A stretch of 47,106 nucleotides of DNA from Candidatus Parcubacteria bacterium (GCA_028286835.1 JAQBQT010000025.1:1-47106); one strand, 5' to 3'; counted from the first letter of the stretch, positions 25,304 to 33,886 are shown. The notes: generated by a model not told the origin, from the sequence alone. Made by a program: numbers and translations.

Positions 25304-25726
25304 ATGCCTACAATCAACCAGCTTACAAAATCATCAAGGAAGCGCTTCAAGAGGAAGTCAAAGTCCATCGCCCTCACGCGCACCTTCAATTCGATCGCGA
25401 ACCGACCGATCTTCTTTCCGGCTCCGTTCAAGCGCGGCGTATGCGTCAAAGTGACGACGAAGACCCCGAAGAAGCCGAACTCAGCCATCCGCAAGATCGC
25501 TCGTGTCCGCCTCACCAACGGCCTTGAAGTCACAGCATATGTTCCAGGCATGGGTCACAACCTCCAGGAACACTCAGTGGTCCTCCTCCGCGGCGGCCGC
25601 GTCAAAGACGTAGGTCTCCGCTATTCAGTCGTGCGCGGCGTTTTGGACTGCGCAGGCGTCGAAGCTCGCAGAAAAGGTCGCAGCCAATACGGTAACAAGC
25701 GTCCGAAGGCCGCTAAGACCGCCTAA
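25304..25726 (+). CDS. rpsL: 30S ribosomal protein S12
   Basis: [29 protein letters not shown]. Confidence 0.99.
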
Positions 25727-25750
25727 CTCAGGTAATTTTCATCTACTACT

Positions 25751-26221
25751 ATGCGACGCAAACTCAACATCAAAAGGGAATTGAAGCCTGACGCGAACTA
25801 CGATTCGCTCAAGCTCGCCAAATTTACGAACTACGTCATGGAATCCGGCAAGAAGACGACGGCCCGTGCCATCGTTGCCGACTGTATGACTGCTATCAAG
25901 GAGAAGGCCAAAGTTGAAAATCCGATGGAAGTCTTCGAGACAGCCCTCAAGAACACGTCGCCTGCCATGGAAGTCCGCTCACGCCGCGTTGGCGGTGCCA
26001 ACTACCAGGTTCCACGCGAAGTCCGCCCGGAGCGCAAGAATGCCATGTCCATGAAGTGGATCATCGAGGCAGCCCGCGCCAAGAAGGGAGCTCCTATGCA
26101 CCTCAAGCTCGCCGACGAGATCATCGCCGCCTCCAAGAATGAAGGCGAAGCAGTGAAGAAGCGCGAGAATGTCCACAAGATGGCCGAAGCCAACAAGGCT
26201 TTCGCTCACTTTGCCTGGTAG
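25751..26221 (+). CDS. rpsG: 30S ribosomal protein S7
   Basis: [28 protein letters not shown]. Confidence 0.99.
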
Positions 26222-26245
26222 CCTCCGCCGAGGATCCTATAGCAG

Positions 26246-26274
26246 AAAACCGACCCTTATCTGGGCCGGTTTTT
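26246..26274. terminator. Bidirectional terminator after rpsG
   Basis: AAAACCGACCC...GGGCCGGTTTT. Confidence 0.65.
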
Positions 26275-26304
26275 GTTTATGTCAGTTTTTGCCCCCCCAT
26301 GTTG

Positions 26305-26778
26305 CTACTTGCTGTCTTTCTTTTCCTTAAACTCCTTGGCTTTGCCTTCGACATCCTTCTTGGCCTTGGAGATGGTCTCTTCGATGTCATCGCCGATCTC
26401 TTCCCAGCGCTCACGGAGGCGGTCTGCCAATGCTGCCATTTCATCCTTGCTCACTCCTTCGAGGTCAGCATATTTCTCTTTGAGCAGGGCAGACATGTCG
26501 GCGTAGACTTCCTTGCTCGCTTCCGTAAGCTCGTTGCCGCGTTCCATCGCCTTGTCTTTGAGGTCCATAGCCTTATCCATGGCACGGTCTTTCATGTCGA
26601 GAGCCTTATCCTTGGCGTTGCCTGCAGCCTTCTTTATCTTTTCGCGCGTTTTGGCTCCGTCCTTCGTGCCATATAGATAGTAGGTGGCTACGGCTGCCGC
26701 AGCTGCTGCAGCGATGCCGACTCCTACGGCTGCGCCCTTTCCTGAAGATTTCTTTTCGAAAAGATGATTTTTGCTCAT
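26305..26778 (-). CDS. YtxH-like general stress protein
   Basis: Gly/Ala TM followed by YLYGTKDGAKTREKI and KDKA repeats. Confidence 0.7.
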   Translation of the reverse strand: MSKNHLFEKKSSGKGAAVGVGIAAAAAAAVATYYLYGTKDGAKTREKIKKAAGNAKDKALDMKDRAMDKAMDLKDKAMERGNELTEASKEVYADMSALLKEKYADLEGVSKDEMAALADRLRERWEEIGDDIEETISKAKKDVEGKAKEFKEKKDSK

Positions 26779-26799
26779 GGTATTGGTTGGTTATTAGTT

Positions 26800-27060
26800 T
26801 TAGTTATAGCGCGAGATCAATCGACGGACAAACCTGAACAATGCCCGGGCGCCGAACGATTGCGTATGCAGGCGTTCCCGGAGATCGCCCAACTCTTCTA
26901 TGATGAATTCACCCTCTATCCGGGCCTTATCCGTGAGCTTTTTGACATTGGCGAGGATCTTGATGATGTATATCCAGGCGACAATGGCCAGAATCGTAAG
27001 GACTACGATGCAGATGGTCGTTATAAAGAAGAAGATGTCCGCGTGTATAAGGGTATTCAT
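26800..27060 (-). CDS. Small membrane protein (YtxG/DUF948-like)
   Basis: One TM plus coiled coil, immediately upstream of the YtxH-like gene. Confidence 0.65.
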   Translation of the reverse strand: MNTLIHADIFFFITTICIVVLTILAIVAWIYIIKILANVKKLTDKARIEGEFIIEELGDLRERLHTQSFGARALFRFVRRLISRYN

Positions 27061-27070
27061 TCAATTGGTG

Positions 27071-27098
27071 ATGACGTTTTGATAAGGGTGGTCTTACA
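27071..27098 (-). promoter_or_regulatory. Putative ECF sigma promoter
   Basis: Minus strand TGTAAG-N16-CGTCAT ending 10 nt before ATG 27060; same boxes as 41719-41746. Confidence 0.65.
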
Positions 27099-27130
27099 GT
27101 GCCTACTGATAGTATACTACACAGACATTC

Positions 27131-27589
27131 ATGGTAACCCCGGAACTCGTCTCCTATATCTACGCCGAACGCAAAAAGGGCGTGGCGGACCATATCATCA
27201 AAGCTTATCTCGCCACCCAGAATTGGAGCGAGGCGGATTTTTATGAAGCCGTACGAACCCTGCCTCCCCGGGGGAGTACTCCTGTAGGAAAGCCTGATGA
27301 GGCGGCCGAAGGCAAGATAAAAGGCGCCGACCTTCGGACCCTTGATCAGAATGCGGTCTGGCGGACGCCCGACGGCAAGGCAGATATGCCTGCTCGACCG
27401 GTCATCAAGGAACATAAGGGCCTCATTAAGGCCATAGTGCTTATTCTTCTTATTGTTATTTTAGGAGCTCTCATCTACCTATATAAGGACATCCTCTGGC
27501 CCATGATCCTCGGCTATTACGCTGAAGCCAAGCCCTTTCTGGATCAGGCCGTGACCGTCATCAGGATGGCGACCGACTTCAGCCATTAG
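27131..27589 (+). CDS. Hypothetical membrane protein
   Basis: N-terminal helical motif (ELVSYI...GV...IKAYL..QNWSEAD), one C-proximal TM. Confidence 0.7.
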   Translation: MVTPELVSYIYAERKKGVADHIIKAYLATQNWSEADFYEAVRTLPPRGSTPVGKPDEAAEGKIKGADLRTLDQNAVWRTPDGKADMPARPVIKEHKGLIKAIVLILLIVILGALIYLYKDILWPMILGYYAEAKPFLDQAVTVIRMATDFSH

Positions 27590-27601
27590 AAGCCTGCTTA
27601 T

Positions 27602-27630
27602 TTGATTATTTAGGCAATTTCCTGTATCTT
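27602..27630 (+). promoter_or_regulatory. sigma70-like promoter for fusA
   Basis: TTGATT-N17-TATCTT. Confidence 0.45.
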
Positions 27631-27720
27631 ACCCCTTACCTAAAGCAATCTCTGCTTTTTTAGTTTAGAGCGAGCGTTTGACCAAATTAATAGCAGCATA
27701 TAACAGTATTTAATCATTTT

Positions 27721-29865
27721 ATGAACCGCGATTATCCGCTTGAACGAGTCCGAAACTTCGGCATCATTGCCCACATCGATGCAGGCAAGACGACTACGTC
27801 TGAACGCATCCTTTACTACACCGGCATGATCCACAAGATCGGCGAGGTGCACGAAGGCGAGACCACGACCGACTGGATGGAACAGGAGCGCGAGCGCGGC
27901 ATCACCATCACGGCCGCCGCTATCACATGCTTCTGGAATCCGACCTATATGCCGGCGACAGATCTCTCCAAGAAAGTCCGTTTCAACATCATCGATACTC
28001 CGGGCCATATCGACTTCACTGTGGAAGTGAAGCGCTCCCTCCGCGTCTTGGACGGCGCAGTCGTCGTATTCGACGGCGTTGCCGGCGTTGAGCCTCAGTC
28101 AGAGACAAACTGGCGCTATGCAGACGAAAGCAATGTGCCTCGCCTCTGCTTCATCAACAAGATGGACCGAATGGGTGCCTCATTCGAGCGCTCATACGCT
28201 TCCATTCTCGACCGCCTCAACAAGAGGGCAGTCCGCTTCCAGCTCCCGATCGGTACCGAGAGCTCTCATGAAGGCGTCGTTGACCTCATGCGCATGAAGG
28301 CTTTCTTCTTCGAAGGCGAGAAGGGTATCAATATCATAGAGAAGGAGATCCCGGCAGACATGATGGATGACGCCAAGAAATACCGCGCAGAGATGGTCGA
28401 GAAGATCGTCGAGACAGACGATGCAGCTATGAGCGAGTTCCTCGAAGGCAAGGAGTTCACCATGGACGAGCTCAAGAAGCTCTGCCGCGCCGCAGTCATC
28501 GCCAACAAGATCTTCCCGGTCTTCACCGGCTCAGCCCTCAAGAACGTCGGCGTTCAGCTCGTGCTCGATGCCGTCGTCGACTATCTCCCGTCTCCTCTCG
28601 ATCTTCCTCCGGTCAAAGGCATCAACCCGAACACGGGCGAAGAGATCCTCCGCCATGCGTCCGATGAAGAGCCGTTCGCGGCGCTTGCCTTCAAGCTCCA
28701 GAACGACCCATTCGTCGGTCAGCTGACATTCTTCCGCGTCTACTCAGGCACCATCGAAGCAGGCACATATATATACAACGTCACGACAGGCAAGAAGGAA
28801 CGCCTCGGCCGCATCGTGCGCCTTCAGGCCGACAAGCGTGAAGAGGTCAAGAAGGTCTTCGCCGGCGAGATTGCCGCAGCCGTAGGCCTCAAGGACGCCC
28901 TCACATCTCACACATTCTGCGACGAAGCCAATCCTATCGTCCTCGAAGTCATCAAATTCATGGCACCGGTCGTCTCGCTCCGCATCGAGCCGAAGACAAA
29001 GGCCGACCAGGAGAAAATGGGTATGGCTCTCCGCAAGCTCGGCATGGAAGATCCGACGTTCCATATCTCTTCGAACCAGGAAACAGGCGAGACCATCATC
29101 TCAGGCATGGGAGAACTCCACCTCGAGATCATGGTTGACCGCATGAAGCGCGAGTTCGGCGTTGAAGCCAATGTCGGCGCGCCTCAGGTGGCATATCGCG
29201 AAACCATCCTCAACGAAGCCGAGGCCGAATACAAATATATCAAGCAGACAGGCGGTAAGGGTCAGTACGGCCACGTGCGTCTCTCAGTCCGTCCGATGGT
29301 CCCTCTCGTAGAAGGAGAGAAAGTCCCTAAGAACGTCAAGCGCTACGATGATTTCGAATTCATCAACTCCATCAAGGGTGGCGTCATTCCGAACGAATTC
29401 ATTCCGGCCGTCGAAAAGGGCGTCCGCGAAGCTCTCGATCGCGGTATCGTCGCTGGCTACAAGCTGGTGAATGTTTCCTGCGAGCTCACATTCGGTTCAT
29501 ATCACGACGTCGACTCGTCCGAGATCGCCTATAAGATCGCCGCGTCCCAGGCTTTCCAAGATGCAGCCAAGCGCGCCAAGCCGGTCATCCTTGAGCCGAT
29601 CATGAGGCTCGAAGTGGTCGCCCCTGAAAAATACATGGGTGATGTGAACGGCTCCGTCGCTTCCAAGCGCGGCCAGGTCGAGGGTTCCGAACCTCGCGGT
29701 CAGGCTATCGCCATTCATGCCAAGGTTCCGCTCTCAGAGATGTTCGGATATACGACACAGCTCCGCTCTATGACCTCAGGTCAGGGAAGCGCGATGATGG
29801 AATTCGATCACTACGAAGTGGTTCCGGCCAACGTGGCTCTCGAGATCGCAGAGAAAAGGAAATAA
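27721..29865 (+). CDS. fusA: Elongation factor G
   Basis: AHIDAGKTT, ERERGITI, DTPGH, NKMD, GMGELHLE, YHDVDSSE. Confidence 0.99.
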   Translation: MNRDYPLERVRNFGIIAHIDAGKTTTSERILYYTGMIHKIGEVHEGETTTDWMEQERERGITITAAAITCFWNPTYMPATDLSKKVRFNIIDTPGHIDFTVEVKRSLRVLDGAVVVFDGVAGVEPQSETNWRYADESNVPRLCFINKMDRMGASFERSYASILDRLNKRAVRFQLPIGTESSHEGVVDLMRMKAFFFEGEKGINIIEKEIPADMMDDAKKYRAEMVEKIVETDDAAMSEFLEGKEFTMDELKKLCRAAVIANKIFPVFTGSALKNVGVQLVLDAVVDYLPSPLDLPPVKGINPNTGEEILRHASDEEPFAALAFKLQNDPFVGQLTFFRVYSGTIEAGTYIYNVTTGKKERLGRIVRLQADKREEVKKVFAGEIAAAVGLKDALTSHTFCDEANPIVLEVIKFMAPVVSLRIEPKTKADQEKMGMALRKLGMEDPTFHISSNQETGETIISGMGELHLEIMVDRMKREFGVEANVGAPQVAYRETILNEAEAEYKYIKQTGGKGQYGHVRLSVRPMVPLVEGEKVPKNVKRYDDFEFINSIKGGVIPNEFIPAVEKGVREALDRGIVAGYKLVNVSCELTFGSYHDVDSSEIAYKIAASQAFQDAAKRAKPVILEPIMRLEVVAPEKYMGDVNGSVASKRGQVEGSEPRGQAIAIHAKVPLSEMFGYTTQLRSMTSGQGSAMMEFDHYEVVPANVALEIAEKRK

Positions 29866-29892: not shown

Positions 29893-29918
29893 AAAAGCCG
29901 GCTTCTGCCGGTTTTTTT
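29893..29918 (+). terminator. Intrinsic terminator after fusA
   Basis: GCCGGC-TTCT-GCCGGT followed by TTTTTT. Confidence 0.75.
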
Positions 29919-29973
29919 GCACAGAAACTTTCCACTTGCGCGTACGTCATATAAGCATCACACTATATACCAT

Positions 29974-31476
29974 ATGAAAAAATATCTCATAGCCATCGCC
30001 GCAGTGCTCGTCGTCTCAGTCTCGTATGCCCACGCCCAGAATTACTCATATTCCCGTGATCTCTATATAGGATCATCAGGTCCTGACGTTGCTGCGCTGC
30101 AGAATTGGCTTCTCTCTAACGGATACGACATTCCTGCCTTGCGCGCAGGGATCACGCCTCAAGGCTATTTTGGTTTCCAGACGCAGGCGGCTCTCGCCCG
30201 CTATCAGGCATCAGTCGGCCTGCCTCCTAACGGATATTTCGGTGCGCTCACCCGCGCGCGCATGAATGGCTCTGTCGGGGGTTATCCCGGTACACCAACT
30301 CCAGTCCCTGTTCCCACCGCTTTTATAAGGGTAATGTCACCCAACGGAGGTGAAACCCTTCAGAGGGGAACTTCATATATGATCACTTGGACGAGTACAG
30401 GACTCTCACAGCAATGGCCAGGAACAGGCACCATAGAGCTCCAGCCTGCGCTTCCGGCCTGTGCCGAACCGACCCAGCCCATCCGCTGCATGATCATGGT
30501 GCGCGCTCCGTATCCTATCGCTCAGAATGTGAATCTCGCCTCTCAATCGTATTCATGGAGCGTTCCCGATGTTCTATCTTTGGGTGATCAGCCCCTGGGC
30601 AATCAGCCCATCCAGGCAGCTCCGGATGGCTCGTACAAGATAAAGATCTGTCAGACATCTACGAACATATGTGATACGAGCGATGCGTACTTCACGGTGA
30701 CATCATCTTCTGTTGGCGGAACAACGGGAGGTGCCGGCCCTCTCGCCATCGTCTCACCGAATGGCGGGGAATCATGGCAGAAAGGCAGCATCCAAACTAT
30801 CCGCTGGACCTCGCCGTATTATTTCCAGGCCGCCTATGGCGATATCAGGCTCGTCCGCTATATGCCTCCATGCTCCGGCATATGTCCTATGTATATGGTC
30901 GCTCCCTATACTATCGCAAGCAATATCAGCATAAATCAGAATTCTTACGCATGGACTGTTGGAGATGCGGCTCAGCAGGGCAGCACGAATGGTCAGCGCA
31001 TCACCGTGCCTGATGGTCAGTACACAGTTCAGATCTGCCAGACAGGCTCAGGATCATGTGTTTCAAGCACTGGCCCCTTCACTATATGTGGGGACACGAC
31101 AGTGAATCCTGGCGGACAGTCGCCTGTGATCTCAGGTGTCACCGCCCCTACCAGTCTTTCAATAGGGCAAACCAGTACATGGACTGTACGTGCATATGAT
31201 CCACTGAATGGCTCCCTTACATATTCTGTCGACTGGGGCGATCAGCCCCAGAACAATCCTTATTATCTGAGCGCCGCATCTTCTCCTCAGTTTGCCCAGA
31301 CAAGCTCATTCACGCATTCATATGCCAATCCCGGCACGTATCAGATCACGTTTACGGTCAGAAATGCGAGCGGCATGACCGCTCAGGCCAAAACGACCGT
31401 GAATGTAGGCGGGGTGAATTGCCCTCCAGGATACATGTGCGCCACTCGGTCGCCGTACATGACGCCGTACATATAG
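29974..31476 (+). CDS. Secreted protein: peptidoglycan-binding domain, two SPNGGE Ig-like repeats, PKD-like domain
   Basis: Signal peptide MKKYLIAIAA..AHA; DL.IGSSGPDVAALQ..GYFG; SPNGGE x2; YSVDWGD..HSYANPGTY. Confidence 0.85.
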   Translation: MKKYLIAIAAVLVVSVSYAHAQNYSYSRDLYIGSSGPDVAALQNWLLSNGYDIPALRAGITPQGYFGFQTQAALARYQASVGLPPNGYFGALTRARMNGSVGGYPGTPTPVPVPTAFIRVMSPNGGETLQRGTSYMITWTSTGLSQQWPGTGTIELQPALPACAEPTQPIRCMIMVRAPYPIAQNVNLASQSYSWSVPDVLSLGDQPLGNQPIQAAPDGSYKIKICQTSTNICDTSDAYFTVTSSSVGGTTGGAGPLAIVSPNGGESWQKGSIQTIRWTSPYYFQAAYGDIRLVRYMPPCSGICPMYMVAPYTIASNISINQNSYAWTVGDAAQQGSTNGQRITVPDGQYTVQICQTGSGSCVSSTGPFTICGDTTVNPGGQSPVISGVTAPTSLSIGQTSTWTVRAYDPLNGSLTYSVDWGDQPQNNPYYLSAASSPQFAQTSSFTHSYANPGTYQITFTVRNASGMTAQAKTTVNVGGVNCPPGYMCATRSPYMTPYI

Positions 31477-31507: not shown

Positions 31508-31635
31508 TTGCACGTTTCTTTCGCGTATGCTAACCTGAGCTTTACGCGCTTCCTAAGCGTTTTTATTAGTCCCCATTAATAATTTATCTTTGACTCTCGC
31601 TGCTTGGCATCACGCCCAGACAATGCGAGTCAAAG
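31508..31635 (+). promoter_or_regulatory. tuf promoter and hairpin leader
   Basis: TTGCAC-N17-TAACCT with TG; GCGCTT-CCT-AAGCGT-TTTT; long stem CTTTGAC (31588)...GTCAAAG (31635). Confidence 0.45.
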
Positions 31636-31653
31636 CACTAAATCAATAATCAT

Positions 31654-32841
31654 ATGGCAGCAGAATTCAATCGCACAAAGCCGCACGTTAACGTCGGTAC
31701 CATCGGTCACATCGACCACGGAAAGTCGACGCTCACGGCAGCTATCGTCGCAGTTCAGGCCCGCAAAGGCATGGCCAAAGAGAAGGCTTACGCCGAAATT
31801 ACAAAGGGTGGTACCGTCCGCGATGCTTCAAAGACAGTCACTATCTCTCTTTCTCATGTTGAGTACGAGAGTAACAAGCGCCACTACGCTCACATCGACG
31901 CTCCAGGCCACGCCGACTATATCAAGAACATGATCACAGGTGCCGCCCAGATGGACGGAGCCATTCTCGTGGTTTCCGCTCTCGACGGCGTTATGCCTCA
32001 GACGCGTGAGCACATCCTTCTCGCCGAGCAGATCGGTGTTCCGAAGGTAGTTATCTTCCTCAACAAGTGCGATGCAGTCGAGGAAAAGGACCTTATCGAC
32101 CTCGTGGAGGAAGAAGTGCGTGACCTCCTTACGAAGTATCACTTTGACGGCAAGAATGTCCCGGTCATCCGCGGCTCAGCCCTCAAGGCCCTCGAGAACG
32201 ATCCAGCATGGAATGCAAAGATCGACGAGCTTATGGATGCTCTCGATAGCTACATCCCTGATCCGATCCGTGAAGTAGATAAGCCGTTCCTCATGCCGAT
32301 CGAAGACATCTTCTCGATCGAAGGCCGTGGAACAGTGGTCACAGGCCGCATCGAGCGCGGTGTTATCAAGGTAGGTGAAGAAGTCGAGATCGTCGGCTTC
32401 CGCGACACCGTCAAGACGACCATCACTGGCATCGAGATGTTCAACAAGTCCCTCAAGGAGGGTATGGCAGGCGACAACGCAGGTCTTCTTCTCCGCGGCA
32501 CAGCCAAGGACGACGTATCCCGCGGTCAGGTTCTCGCCAAGACTGGCTCAGTCAAGCCTCACACAGAGTTCGAGGCCGAAGTATATATCTTGAAGAAAGA
32601 AGAGGGAGGCCGCCACACGCCGTTCTTCACAGGATATAAGCCTCAGTTCTATATCCGCACGACAGACGTTACAGGTGAAGTGACTCTCGCCGAAAAGGTT
32701 GAGATGGTCATGCCGGGTGACACAGTGACCTTCAAGGTGAAGCTCGTCGCTCCGGTCGCTCTCGAAGCCCCTCAGCGCTTTGCAGTCCGCGAAGGAGGCA
32801 AGACAGTAGGTTCAGGCGTCATTACTAAAGTAGTCGCATAA
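31654..32841 (+). CDS. tuf: Elongation factor Tu
   Basis: [48 protein letters not shown]. Confidence 0.99.
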
Positions 32842-32868: not shown

Positions 32869-33252
32869 ATGGCAGCCGCAAAGGAAACAACAAAGAAAGC
32901 AGCAGCAAAGCCGGTCCGCGCCAAAAAGGCAAAGGCTGAAGGAGCTGCTCCGCACCTCAGGATCCGAGTGCGCGCCTATGAGCACAAGATTCTCGACGCA
33001 TCCCTCCGCCAGATCATGGACACTGCCGCCCGCTACGATGCAGAGATCAACGGCCCTGTTCCGCTTCCGACAGAGATCAAGAAGTACACAGTCAACCGTT
33101 CCTCATTCATCGACAAGAATGCCCGCGAGCAGTTCGAGATGCGCGTACACAAGCGTCTCATCGACATTGTGAACCCGAATCCGAAGGTCATCGAGGCGTT
33201 GACGAACCTCAGCTTGCCTTCAGGCGTGAATATAGACGTAAAAATGATGTAG
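32869..33252 (+). CDS. rpsJ: 30S ribosomal protein S10
   Basis: GPVPLPT, AREQFEMRVHKRLIDI; Ala/Lys N-terminal extension. Confidence 0.98.
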   Translation: MAAAKETTKKAAAKPVRAKKAKAEGAAPHLRIRVRAYEHKILDASLRQIMDTAARYDAEINGPVPLPTEIKKYTVNRSSFIDKNAREQFEMRVHKRLIDIVNPNPKVIEALTNLSLPSGVNIDVKMM

Positions 33253-33274: not shown

Positions 33275-33886
33275 ATGAAATTCATTACCGGACGAAAACT
33301 GAATATGACTCAGATCTATAGCGAGAAGGGCGAAGCCATTCCTGTCACGGCTGTTGTCGTCCGCGGCAACGTCGTCACCCAGATCCGCACGAAGGACGTA
33401 GATGGCTACGAAGCAGTGCAGATCGGCGAAGGCTCCCGCAATCCGAACCGCATCGCCAAGCCGCAGAAAGGCCAGTTCAAGGATCTCGGCAGCTTCGCCT
33501 TCGTCAAGGAATTCCGCATGGAATCCCCGAGCATGAAGGTCGGCGACAAGATCGAGCTCTCCCAGTTCAAGGCAGGGGACATGGTCGAGGTGAGCGCCAT
33601 CTCCAAGGGCAAGGGCTTCCAGGGCGTGGTCAAGCGCCACGGCTTCCATGGCGGTCCCCGCACTCACGGTCAGAAGCACTCCGAGCGCGAACCGGGCTCC
33701 ATCGGCGGAGGTCTCCGCAACCGCGTGCCGGTCGGCATGCGCATGGCCGGCCGCATGGGCTCAGACCGCATCACGGTGAGGAATCTCAAGGTCGTTCATA
33801 TTGACCAAGACGACAGCATCCTGTATGTTTCTGGAGCGATTCCAGGACGCCGCGGCACTCTCGTAGAGATCGTCGCCGAAAAATAA
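33275..33886 (+). CDS. rplC: 50S ribosomal protein L3
   Basis: DGYEAVQIG, SKGKGFQGVVKRHGF, PGSIG, MAGRMG. Confidence 0.98.
   Translation: MKFITGRKLNMTQIYSEKGEAIPVTAVVVRGNVVTQIRTKDVDGYEAVQIGEGSRNPNRIAKPQKGQFKDLGSFAFVKEFRMESPSMKVGDKIELSQFKAGDMVEVSAISKGKGFQGVVKRHGFHGGPRTHGQKHSEREPGSIGGGLRNRVPVGMRMAGRMGSDRITVRNLKVVHIDQDDSILYVSGAIPGRRGTLVEIVAEK

Follow-up and report, generated by a model that had tools for sequence, protein, structure and literature searches.

Elongation factor Tu (EF-Tu) ranks among the most conserved proteins, and its effector loop, switch I, is in contact with nucleotide, tRNA and ribosome. In the canonical protein, Asp50 binds a water molecule that coordinates the Mg2+ ion. 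A planctomycete-specific EF-Tu signature, an 11-residue motif, is said to have been described by Jenkins and Fuerst in 2001 (J Mol Evol 52:405). The parts worth following in the present case are a cassette-like discordance between loop and body and a coupling of residues 25 and 50. Concerning the nucleotide site, the accessible text of PMC6144822 describes a contact between Thr25 of EF-Tu and the β-phosphate, and that of a review on translational GTPases (PMC4342817) describes the binding of a monovalent cation through an Asp of the P-loop and a Gly of switch I. For EF-Tu switch I in Planctomycetes, the same portion of this review does not describe the loop discussed here. A literature search with most subscription journals outside its reach found neither the motif string GGTVRD nor, within the same coverage, any work linking EF-Tu switch I with Patescibacteria.

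The mobility of tuf, the gene for EF-Tu, has been approached from two sides. Salmonella carries duplicate tuf genes, tufA and tufB, between which gene conversion is documented in the accessible part of PMC5485169, a known mechanism by which short stretches pass from one tuf copy to the other within a cell. According to that part, conversion homogenises near-identical copies within one species, whereas in the present case we infer that a divergent cassette passed between distant lineages. On the level of whole genes, the accessible text of a study on groundwater Patescibacteria (PMC12455944) names tuf as one of the genes that these organisms have acquired and passed on. It treats whole genes found by automated detection and makes no mention of switch I in that text, unlike the cassette-level discordance described below.

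We analysed a stretch of 47,106 nucleotides from a Candidatus Parcubacteria bacterium (JAQBQT010000025.1), hereafter called the window. The gene of interest and its neighbours are as follows.

25304-25726, + strand: rpsL (NCBIfam equivalog)
25751-26221, + strand: rpsG (NCBIfam equivalog)
within 25304..29865, + strand: two small ORFs between rpsG and fusA, with no family match
27721-29865, + strand: fusA, encoding EF-G (NCBIfam equivalog)
29917..31476, + strand: 519-aa ORF between fusA and tuf, with peptidoglycan-binding and PKD/Ig-like domains (Pfam PF01471, PF18911, PF10342)
31654..32841, + strand: tuf, housekeeping elongation factor Tu, 395 aa plus stop (ORF, TIGR00485, Pfam and PDB matches)
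32869-33252, + strand: rpsJ (NCBIfam equivalog)
33275-33886, + strand: rplC (NCBIfam equivalog)

The tuf product scores 668.4 bits against the NCBIfam equivalog model TIGR00485, above the cut-off of 522.4. The three domains GTP_EFTU, D2 and D3 are all intact in Pfam (PF00009 at residues 9-202, PF03144 at 226-295 and PF03143 at 299-393), and a search of the PDB matched 268 distinct sequences, the top one with an end-to-end alignment at an E-value of 4e-185. The AlphaFold model has a mean pLDDT of 84.7 and a pTM of 0.81. All genes listed lie on one strand, and because of the order rpsL-rpsG-fusA-[ORF]-tuf-rpsJ-rplC this tuf is the housekeeping copy of the str/S10 region. The genome, one of the Parcubacteria (Paceibacteria), thus has its housekeeping EF-Tu gene between fusA and rpsJ. 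The 519-aa ORF, which belongs to the context and not to the altered loop, shows a weak match to a PamR-like CPR pilus protein. Two ORFs overlapping tuf, 31604..31933 (+) and 31828..32142 (-), are frame by-products.

What drew attention to this gene was its switch I. The original prediction had claimed that the usual effector region, D.IDxAPEExxRGITI, is replaced, and alignments with E. coli and with PDB sequences agree, placing the change in a loop that is two residues longer. The flagged segment translates as claimed, to residues 30-72 of the 395-aa ORF, and the other protein strings quoted alongside it all lie in this same ORF; the opposite strand of the segment contains a stop. The relevant features within tuf are listed here.

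31705..31731, + strand: P-loop (G1) GHIDHGKST, residues 18-26, with Ser25 instead of the ordinary Thr (E. coli alignment)
31741..31869, + strand: segment flagged in the original prediction, residues 30-72 (translation, 43 residues)
31792..31845, + strand: alternative switch-I cassette, residues 47-64 (identity windows against other EF-Tu groups)
31801..31803, + strand: codon of Thr50, at the position of E. coli Asp50, covarying with residue 25 (alignment, 363-sequence count)
31840..31842, + strand: codon of Thr63, the retained switch-I threonine, Thr61 in E. coli (E. coli alignment)
31897..31911, + strand: switch II DAPGH, D82-H86 (E. coli D80-H84), retained (E. coli alignment)
32062..32073, + strand: guanine-specificity motif NKCD, residues 137-140, retained (E. 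coli alignment)

In comparison with canonical EF-Tu of the E. coli/Thermus type (TIGR00485), the window protein shares the length, the three-domain architecture, the operon position and the nucleotide motifs: G1, G3, G4, G5 and the catalytic His all align to E. coli (P-loop, DxxGH, NKxD, SAL). Apart from Ser25 of the P-loop, the difference from E. coli and the solved structures is confined to the effector loop, in which residues 47-64 are replaced with a gain of two residues. Asp50 becomes T50, A52-P53 become G52-G53, T54-V55 are inserted, E54-E55 are replaced by R56-D57, and R58, G59 and I60 by K60, T61 and V62. Asp50, the APEE stretch, Arg58 and Gly59 are therewith lost, and of the canonical IDxAPEExxRGITI only T63, equivalent to E. 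coli T61, and the final isoleucine are kept. The EF-G encoded in the window retains the usual ERERGITI switch I, so the loop change is specific to EF-Tu.

In place of the usual loop, residues 51-64 show the block KGGTVRDxxK[T/I/V][V/L]TI together with the 2-residue insertion. Eight of its residues, K51, G52, G53, T54, V55, R56, D57 and K60, are invariant in 50/50 sequences of our alignment A1, as is T63. Judged by sequence, the cassette of about 18 residues, with the consensus I[T/A]KGGTVRDxxK[T/I/V][V/L]TI, contains an exact conserved block, and chance resemblance is ruled out.

How widespread is this loop among the relatives of the window? Of the 3189 candidates in a search with residues 26-68, 3075 reached E<=1e-3; the best 120 of them are 79-100% identical in the segment and carry the block without exception (120/120). 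Fourteen of these 120 come with organism names, all of them from the Patescibacteria group (Paceibacterota, Taylorbacteria, Minisyncoccia, 'Patescibacteria group'). Among the best 120 matches to the body (residues 80-395), which are 87-93% identical, the block is again found in 120/120, in the form KT.TI in 33 and K[IV][VL]TI in 87, and every organism name is Parcubacteria or Patescibacteria. This bears out the earlier statement that the rest of the protein is Parcubacteria-like, and also the alternative offered with it, a lineage-wide CPR variant, as the block is present in all 240 listed rows. Cassette-bearing Parcubacteria contigs reach 856 kb, and the Tayloriibacteriota, a member of the Parcubacteria group, carry the cassette as well. 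These Parcubacteria bearers form one clade both in the N-terminal tree (support 100/94) and in the body tree (100/99). The cassette is the normal state of the window's clade and is fixed in a large clade of Parcubacteria.

These observations bear directly on the possibility that the window genome recently acquired the segment from a planctomycete donor by intragenic recombination, or that its contig is a chimeric assembly. Short metagenomic contigs can indeed carry chimeric tuf genes: the proteins P0014, P0365 and P0378, from contigs 2.2-3.6 kb long, are sharp mosaics, 95-100% identical to different parents on either side. The third-position GC content of the flagged segment is also low, 0.512 as compared to a gene mean of 0.654, and the fourth lowest of 353 overlapping windows. 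We rejected this dip as a signal of import, however; it amounts to about 2.3 standard deviations among only about nine independent windows and was judged not significant. The same combination of loop and body recurs in at least 240 listed rows from independent assemblies, two of which (P0003 and P0007) have a segment identical to that of the window on a body 92% identical. Since this combination is clade-wide in independent assemblies, a recent planctomycete import or a chimeric window contig is excluded, and we give this explanation next to no weight. The clade is, moreover, monophyletic for loop segment and body alike, and the segment is closest to those of other Parcubacteria.

The loop is not restricted to this clade. 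In a scan of species-representative genomes with the degenerate pattern KGGTVRDxxKTxTI we obtained at least 120 matches, and all 120 listed lie inside tuf reading frames. They come mostly from Planctomycetota (Pirellulales, Phycisphaerales, Isosphaeraceae, Rhodopirellula baltica) and Verrucomicrobiota (Opitutales, Limisphaerales and others), the remainder from Polyangia (Sorangium, Polyangium), Bdellovibrionota, one Elusimicrobia, one Omnitrophica and one Parcubacteria-type MAG (L029). That so few Parcubacteria were listed is an artefact of the pattern, because it called for K-T, absent from most Parcubacteria. In Planctomycetota, Verrucomicrobiota and Elusimicrobia the variant tuf lies between tRNA-Thr(-Tyr-Gly-Thr) and tRNA-Trp; in Myxococcota, Bdellovibrionota and L029 it adjoins fusA, rpsJ or both (in L029 rpsJ only), and in Polyangiaceae both contexts, tRNA-tuf-tRNA-Trp and fusA-tuf-rpsJ, are found. 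These are standard contexts of tuf, so the variant is the working, housekeeping EF-Tu of those organisms.

The motif that the original prediction had given for planctomycetes is indeed there: Planctomycetota loci, including that of Rhodopirellula baltica (L114), contain KGGTVRDxxKTVTI, the same block as the window protein. In the rest of its length, the window protein shares only some 66% of its residues with Planctomycetota EF-Tu and falls among the EF-Tus of the CPR. A planctomycete source in particular finds no backing. The cassette is not a planctomycete speciality, being present in six or more other phyla, and the nearest N-terminal segments outside the clade are those of Verrucomicrobiota and Elusimicrobia of the Ser25/Thr50 subtype, joined by a weak branch (84/92).

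One alternative to recombination is a single origin of the whole gene. Under such an explanation variant EF-Tu arose once and reached each phylum by vertical descent or whole-gene transfer, and the Parcubacteria protein is no mosaic at all. Our first body tree (residues 80-395; 63 rows, with ten canonical outgroups from mislabelled records of the 'plasmids' collection and no canonical CPR rows) placed the Parcubacteria clade beside canonical Actinobacteria and Mycoplasmopsis. Two outgroup candidates, a frameshifted Bacteroides sequence (L128) and a divergent Planktothrix plasmid copy (L127), had been dropped. With this sampling, lacking canonical CPR rows, a topology uniting all 53 variants survived an approximately unbiased (AU) test (lnL difference 0.51, p 0.48), and the body data are to that extent compatible with a single origin; the backbone of the EF-Tu tree is poorly resolved in both body trees.

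A search among representatives at 50% identity gave mostly fragments or fusions, 109 of 150 having no recognisable P-loop, and yielded no usable canonical CPR sequence. A third homologue search, with the body of P0014 as query, added 62 proteins, among them 23 with the usual loop, whose clusters bear the names Candidatus Moranbacteria or Moraniibacteriota, a taxon within the Parcubacteria group, and lie on contigs of up to 1.05 Mb. The cassette motif is therefore probably not ancestral across all CPR or all Parcubacteria; an ancestral motif across the CPR clade had been named beforehand as speaking against recombination. A third type of loop is found on the Parcubacteria-like bodies of P0397 and P0416. 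P0014 itself, the 'most basal' row of the first tree, was rejected in that role; it combines a crown-type N-terminal half with a Moranbacteria-type C-terminal half on a 2.2-kb contig.

Because proteins from short contigs had proved to be sharp mosaics, we rebuilt the data set from long contigs only. The resulting 49 rows leave out P0014, P0365, P0378, P0388 and P0363 (contigs of 2-3.6 kb). In the body tree of these rows, again over residues 80-395, the Parcubacteria variants are sister to the Moranbacteria-like canonical EF-Tus with support of 99/95. Based on seven closely related Moranbacteria-like rows and one substitution model, the AU test now rejects one clade of all 32 variants (lnL difference 53.8, p 0.0058), and does so even with the Bdellovibrionota rows left free (lnL difference 36.9, p 0.0061). 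These latter rows are unstable, grouping with Elusimicrobia and Verrucomicrobiota in the first tree and with Sinorhizobium in the 49-row tree. Over residues 80-395, the tests thus speak against whole-gene common descent with the variants of the PVC phyla. The converse test on the N-terminal 80 columns, in which the clade and the Moranbacteria-like rows were held together, costs 27.2 lnL units and is borderline (p 0.053).

Mean identities locate the conflict along the protein.

Parcubacteria variants versus Moranbacteria-like EF-Tus: 74.8% over residues 80-395, 27.5% over residues 47-64
Parcubacteria variants versus other variant-loop EF-Tus (PVC/Myxococcota/Elusimicrobia): 66.2% over residues 80-395, 84.8% over residues 47-64
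Parcubacteria variants versus other canonical EF-Tus: 66.5% over residues 80-395, 22.3% over residues 47-64

The Moranbacteria protein has the closest body outside the clade, whereas its loop is of the usual kind, xxIDKAPEExERGITI. Residues 47-64 are the only stretch in which the clade is closer to the variants of other phyla than to canonical CPR EF-Tu; residues 30-46 are a tie between both, and in every window from residue 65 on the Moranbacteria-like sequences are closer. Exclusive columns tell the same story. Those common only to the clade and the Moranbacteria-like sequences number 6 (strict) or 16 (relaxed) and all lie outside the cassette, while the ten common only to the clade and the other variants fall at residues 20, 52-57 and 60-62, with none in the body. 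Taken with the AU tests, this makes a single origin of the whole gene quite improbable in our view. The discordant piece would thus be a cassette some 18 residues long, with an upper limit near 35.

The claim of intragenic recombination can accordingly be kept in part: AU tests and identity windows give loop and body discordant histories, but the event is not one of this genome, being clade-wide. It had been anticipated that recombination would fail if both segments grouped with one clade; among near relatives they do, in the same Parcubacteria family in both searches and both trees, and it is the deeper histories that diverge.

Which lineage was replaced? The discordance itself does not tell, and the cassette might be ancestral to Parcubacteria or to a wider part of the CPR, the Moranbacteria having returned to the usual loop through recombination with a canonical tuf, so that the mosaic would be the other lineage. 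The third loop type of P0397 and P0416 shows that this region is labile in Parcubacteria. Against this, RGITI is the general state of EF-Tu and also that of the window's own EF-G, and for this reason retention of the usual loop in Moranbacteria is the simpler reading; we consider a regain unlikely. Over residues 47-64, Moranbacteria-like and other canonical EF-Tus are 81.2% identical, a value that fits either direction.

We regard it as probable that the window carries a housekeeping EF-Tu with a body of CPR descent and a cassette of foreign ancestry, the result of an old short-tract replacement in the ancestor of the clade that altered the shell of the nucleotide site. The data support an old mosaic in so far as the short loop seems to have an ancestry different from that of the rest of EF-Tu. 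The cassette most likely entered the ancestor of the clade by replacement of a short tract. A plausible route would start with the acquisition of a foreign tuf copy, proceed by gene conversion between the two copies and end with the loss of one of them; among the genomes covered here, none with one tuf copy of each type came up.

A further trait of the cassette is its coupling to the P-loop. In 363 cassette sequences we count Ser25 with Thr50 in 190, Thr25 with Ala50 in 173, and mixed states in 0; canonical EF-Tus have Thr25 in 76/76. The window protein shows the coupled state Ser25/Thr50, as do the Phycisphaerae, and Pirellulales are Thr25/Ala50. Both subtypes are present in Planctomycetota, Verrucomicrobiota and Parcubacteria. 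On a tree of 285 rows the state changes 11 times, 5 of them inside Parcubacteria, and an independent-pairs test, underpowered with only 4 pairs on well-supported branches, gives p 0.125. As both subtypes of the Parcubacteria lie in one N-terminal clade (100/94), the Thr/Ala subtype arose in place within this group. The switch was accompanied by further change: the window protein differs from its Thr/Ala relatives by 25-29% over residues 20-70 and by only 8-12% elsewhere (Fisher p about 0.001). Part of the coupling may stem from linkage within a single exchanged segment.

The recurrence of the switch from Ser25/Thr50 to Thr25/Ala50 inside the Parcubacteria clade can be read in favour of convergence, that is, of the same cassette having arisen independently in Parcubacteria and in other phyla as an alternative switch I. 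The extreme constraint on the block once it is present, seen in the eight residues invariant throughout alignment A1, points the same way. Yet convergence needs at least nine identical replacements and the same 2-residue insertion in the same place, and the homologue searches, with 247 variant and 23 canonical sequences, contain no intermediates. We hold this explanation to be very improbable.

What would an exchanged cassette mean for the function of the protein? Asp50 is lost, position 50 is coupled to position 25, and the switch-I glycine is lost as well: of the residues that bind the monovalent cation, the P-loop Asp is kept as D21 and the glycine of RGITI is absent. For these reasons the cassette appears to rebuild the second shell of the Mg2+/nucleotide site, with the threonine that serves Mg2+ and the γ-phosphate kept. 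As far as can be judged from its sequence, the window EF-Tu should still deliver aminoacyl-tRNA, possibly with altered behaviour in nucleotide handling or GTPase activation. In the AlphaFold model, computed with alignment A1, the pLDDT falls below 50 over residues 52-65; a weak hairpin of 54-57 and 60-63 appears there, where the model is unreliable.

For translation and deep phylogeny alike, the interest of this case lies in a wholesale alternative to the effector loop, fixed in several phyla, coupled to a change in the P-loop and discordant in ancestry with the body that carries it. Since tuf serves as a phylogenetic marker and is also listed among horizontally transferred genes, both uses can be misled by chimeric short contigs and by a cassette whose history is separate; chimeric short contigs could inflate calls of horizontal tuf transfer such as those of PMC12455944. 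A more far-reaching idea, possible but doubtful at present, is that the switch-I cassette is a functionally distinct, horizontally exchangeable module of EF-Tu that has been grafted onto unrelated tuf backbones more than once, through recombination of short tracts. If this holds, grafts would have occurred at the base of the large Parcubacteria clade and possibly also in Bdellovibrionota, and the cassette may have been kept for a changed handling of Mg2+ and nucleotide, or for the loss of a target site that the effector loop offers to a toxin, an antibiotic or a phage factor.

The str/S10 gene order around tuf is otherwise conserved in the window, and it is interrupted between fusA and tuf by a 519-residue open reading frame. 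Two small reading frames separate rpsG from fusA, and the gene for ribosomal protein S10 follows tuf:

26299–26676, forward strand: 125-residue reading frame in the rpsG–fusA interval
26764–27246, forward strand: 160-residue reading frame in the same interval
29917–31476, forward strand: 519-residue reading frame with peptidoglycan-binding and PKD/Ig-like domains (Pfam)
32869–33252, forward strand: ribosomal protein S10 gene, with the family match beginning at residue 29

The 519-residue product has a hydrophobic N-terminus and is weakly matched by the CPR pilus protein PamR. For the 125- and 160-residue frames, searches of NCBIfam and Pfam returned no matches. Ahead of its family match, S10 is extended at the N-terminus by some 28 residues rich in Lys and Ala.

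Among the homologous EF-Tu proteins, P0397, P0416 and P0133 display a third loop type, ...VAKA[SD][AE]K..(R)RD[AP][TS]KI[IL]T[IV]AI..., which is longer than the cassette. In P0397 and P0416 this loop sits on Parcubacteria-like bodies with 78–82% identity to the window EF-Tu; the body of P0133 is more distant.

The placement of the variant-loop bodies from Bdellovibrionota, namely the loci L013 and L034 (the latter labelled Proteobacteria), differs between trees. They group with Elusimicrobia and Verrucomicrobiota in the 63-row body tree, and with an alphaproteobacterial canonical EF-Tu (100/94) in the 49-row tree of long contigs. Either the cassette was grafted a second time or long branches distort the tree; both could account for these positions.

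Three loci from metagenome-assembled genomes labelled Chitinophagaceae (L061), Chlorobiaceae (L077) and Akkermansia muciniphila (L092) have tuf N-termini of Pirellulales or Opitutales type; L092 agrees with the type of the Opitutales locus L009 over almost the whole printed N-terminus, with a difference at the final printed residue. Such matches point to contigs that were mis-binned or records that were mislabelled. Many of the tuf-carrying records in the plasmid collection (matches H1–H40 and locus L127) reach megabase size and resemble chromosomes under a wrong label. Planktothrix plasmids bear a divergent copy of tuf that has GHINHGK in its P-loop, L127 being plasmid p2 of Planktothrix agardhii.

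A further group comprises the tuf genes of P0014, P0365 and P0378 (also P0388), which lie on contigs of 2.2–3.6 kb and pass abruptly from one of two parents to the other, at 95–100% identity. P0014, for example, joins a crown-Parcubacteria G domain to domains II–III of Moranbacteria. These genes probably arose as chimeras during assembly or by very recent recombination, and short-contig mosaics of this kind are able to mimic horizontal transfer of tuf.
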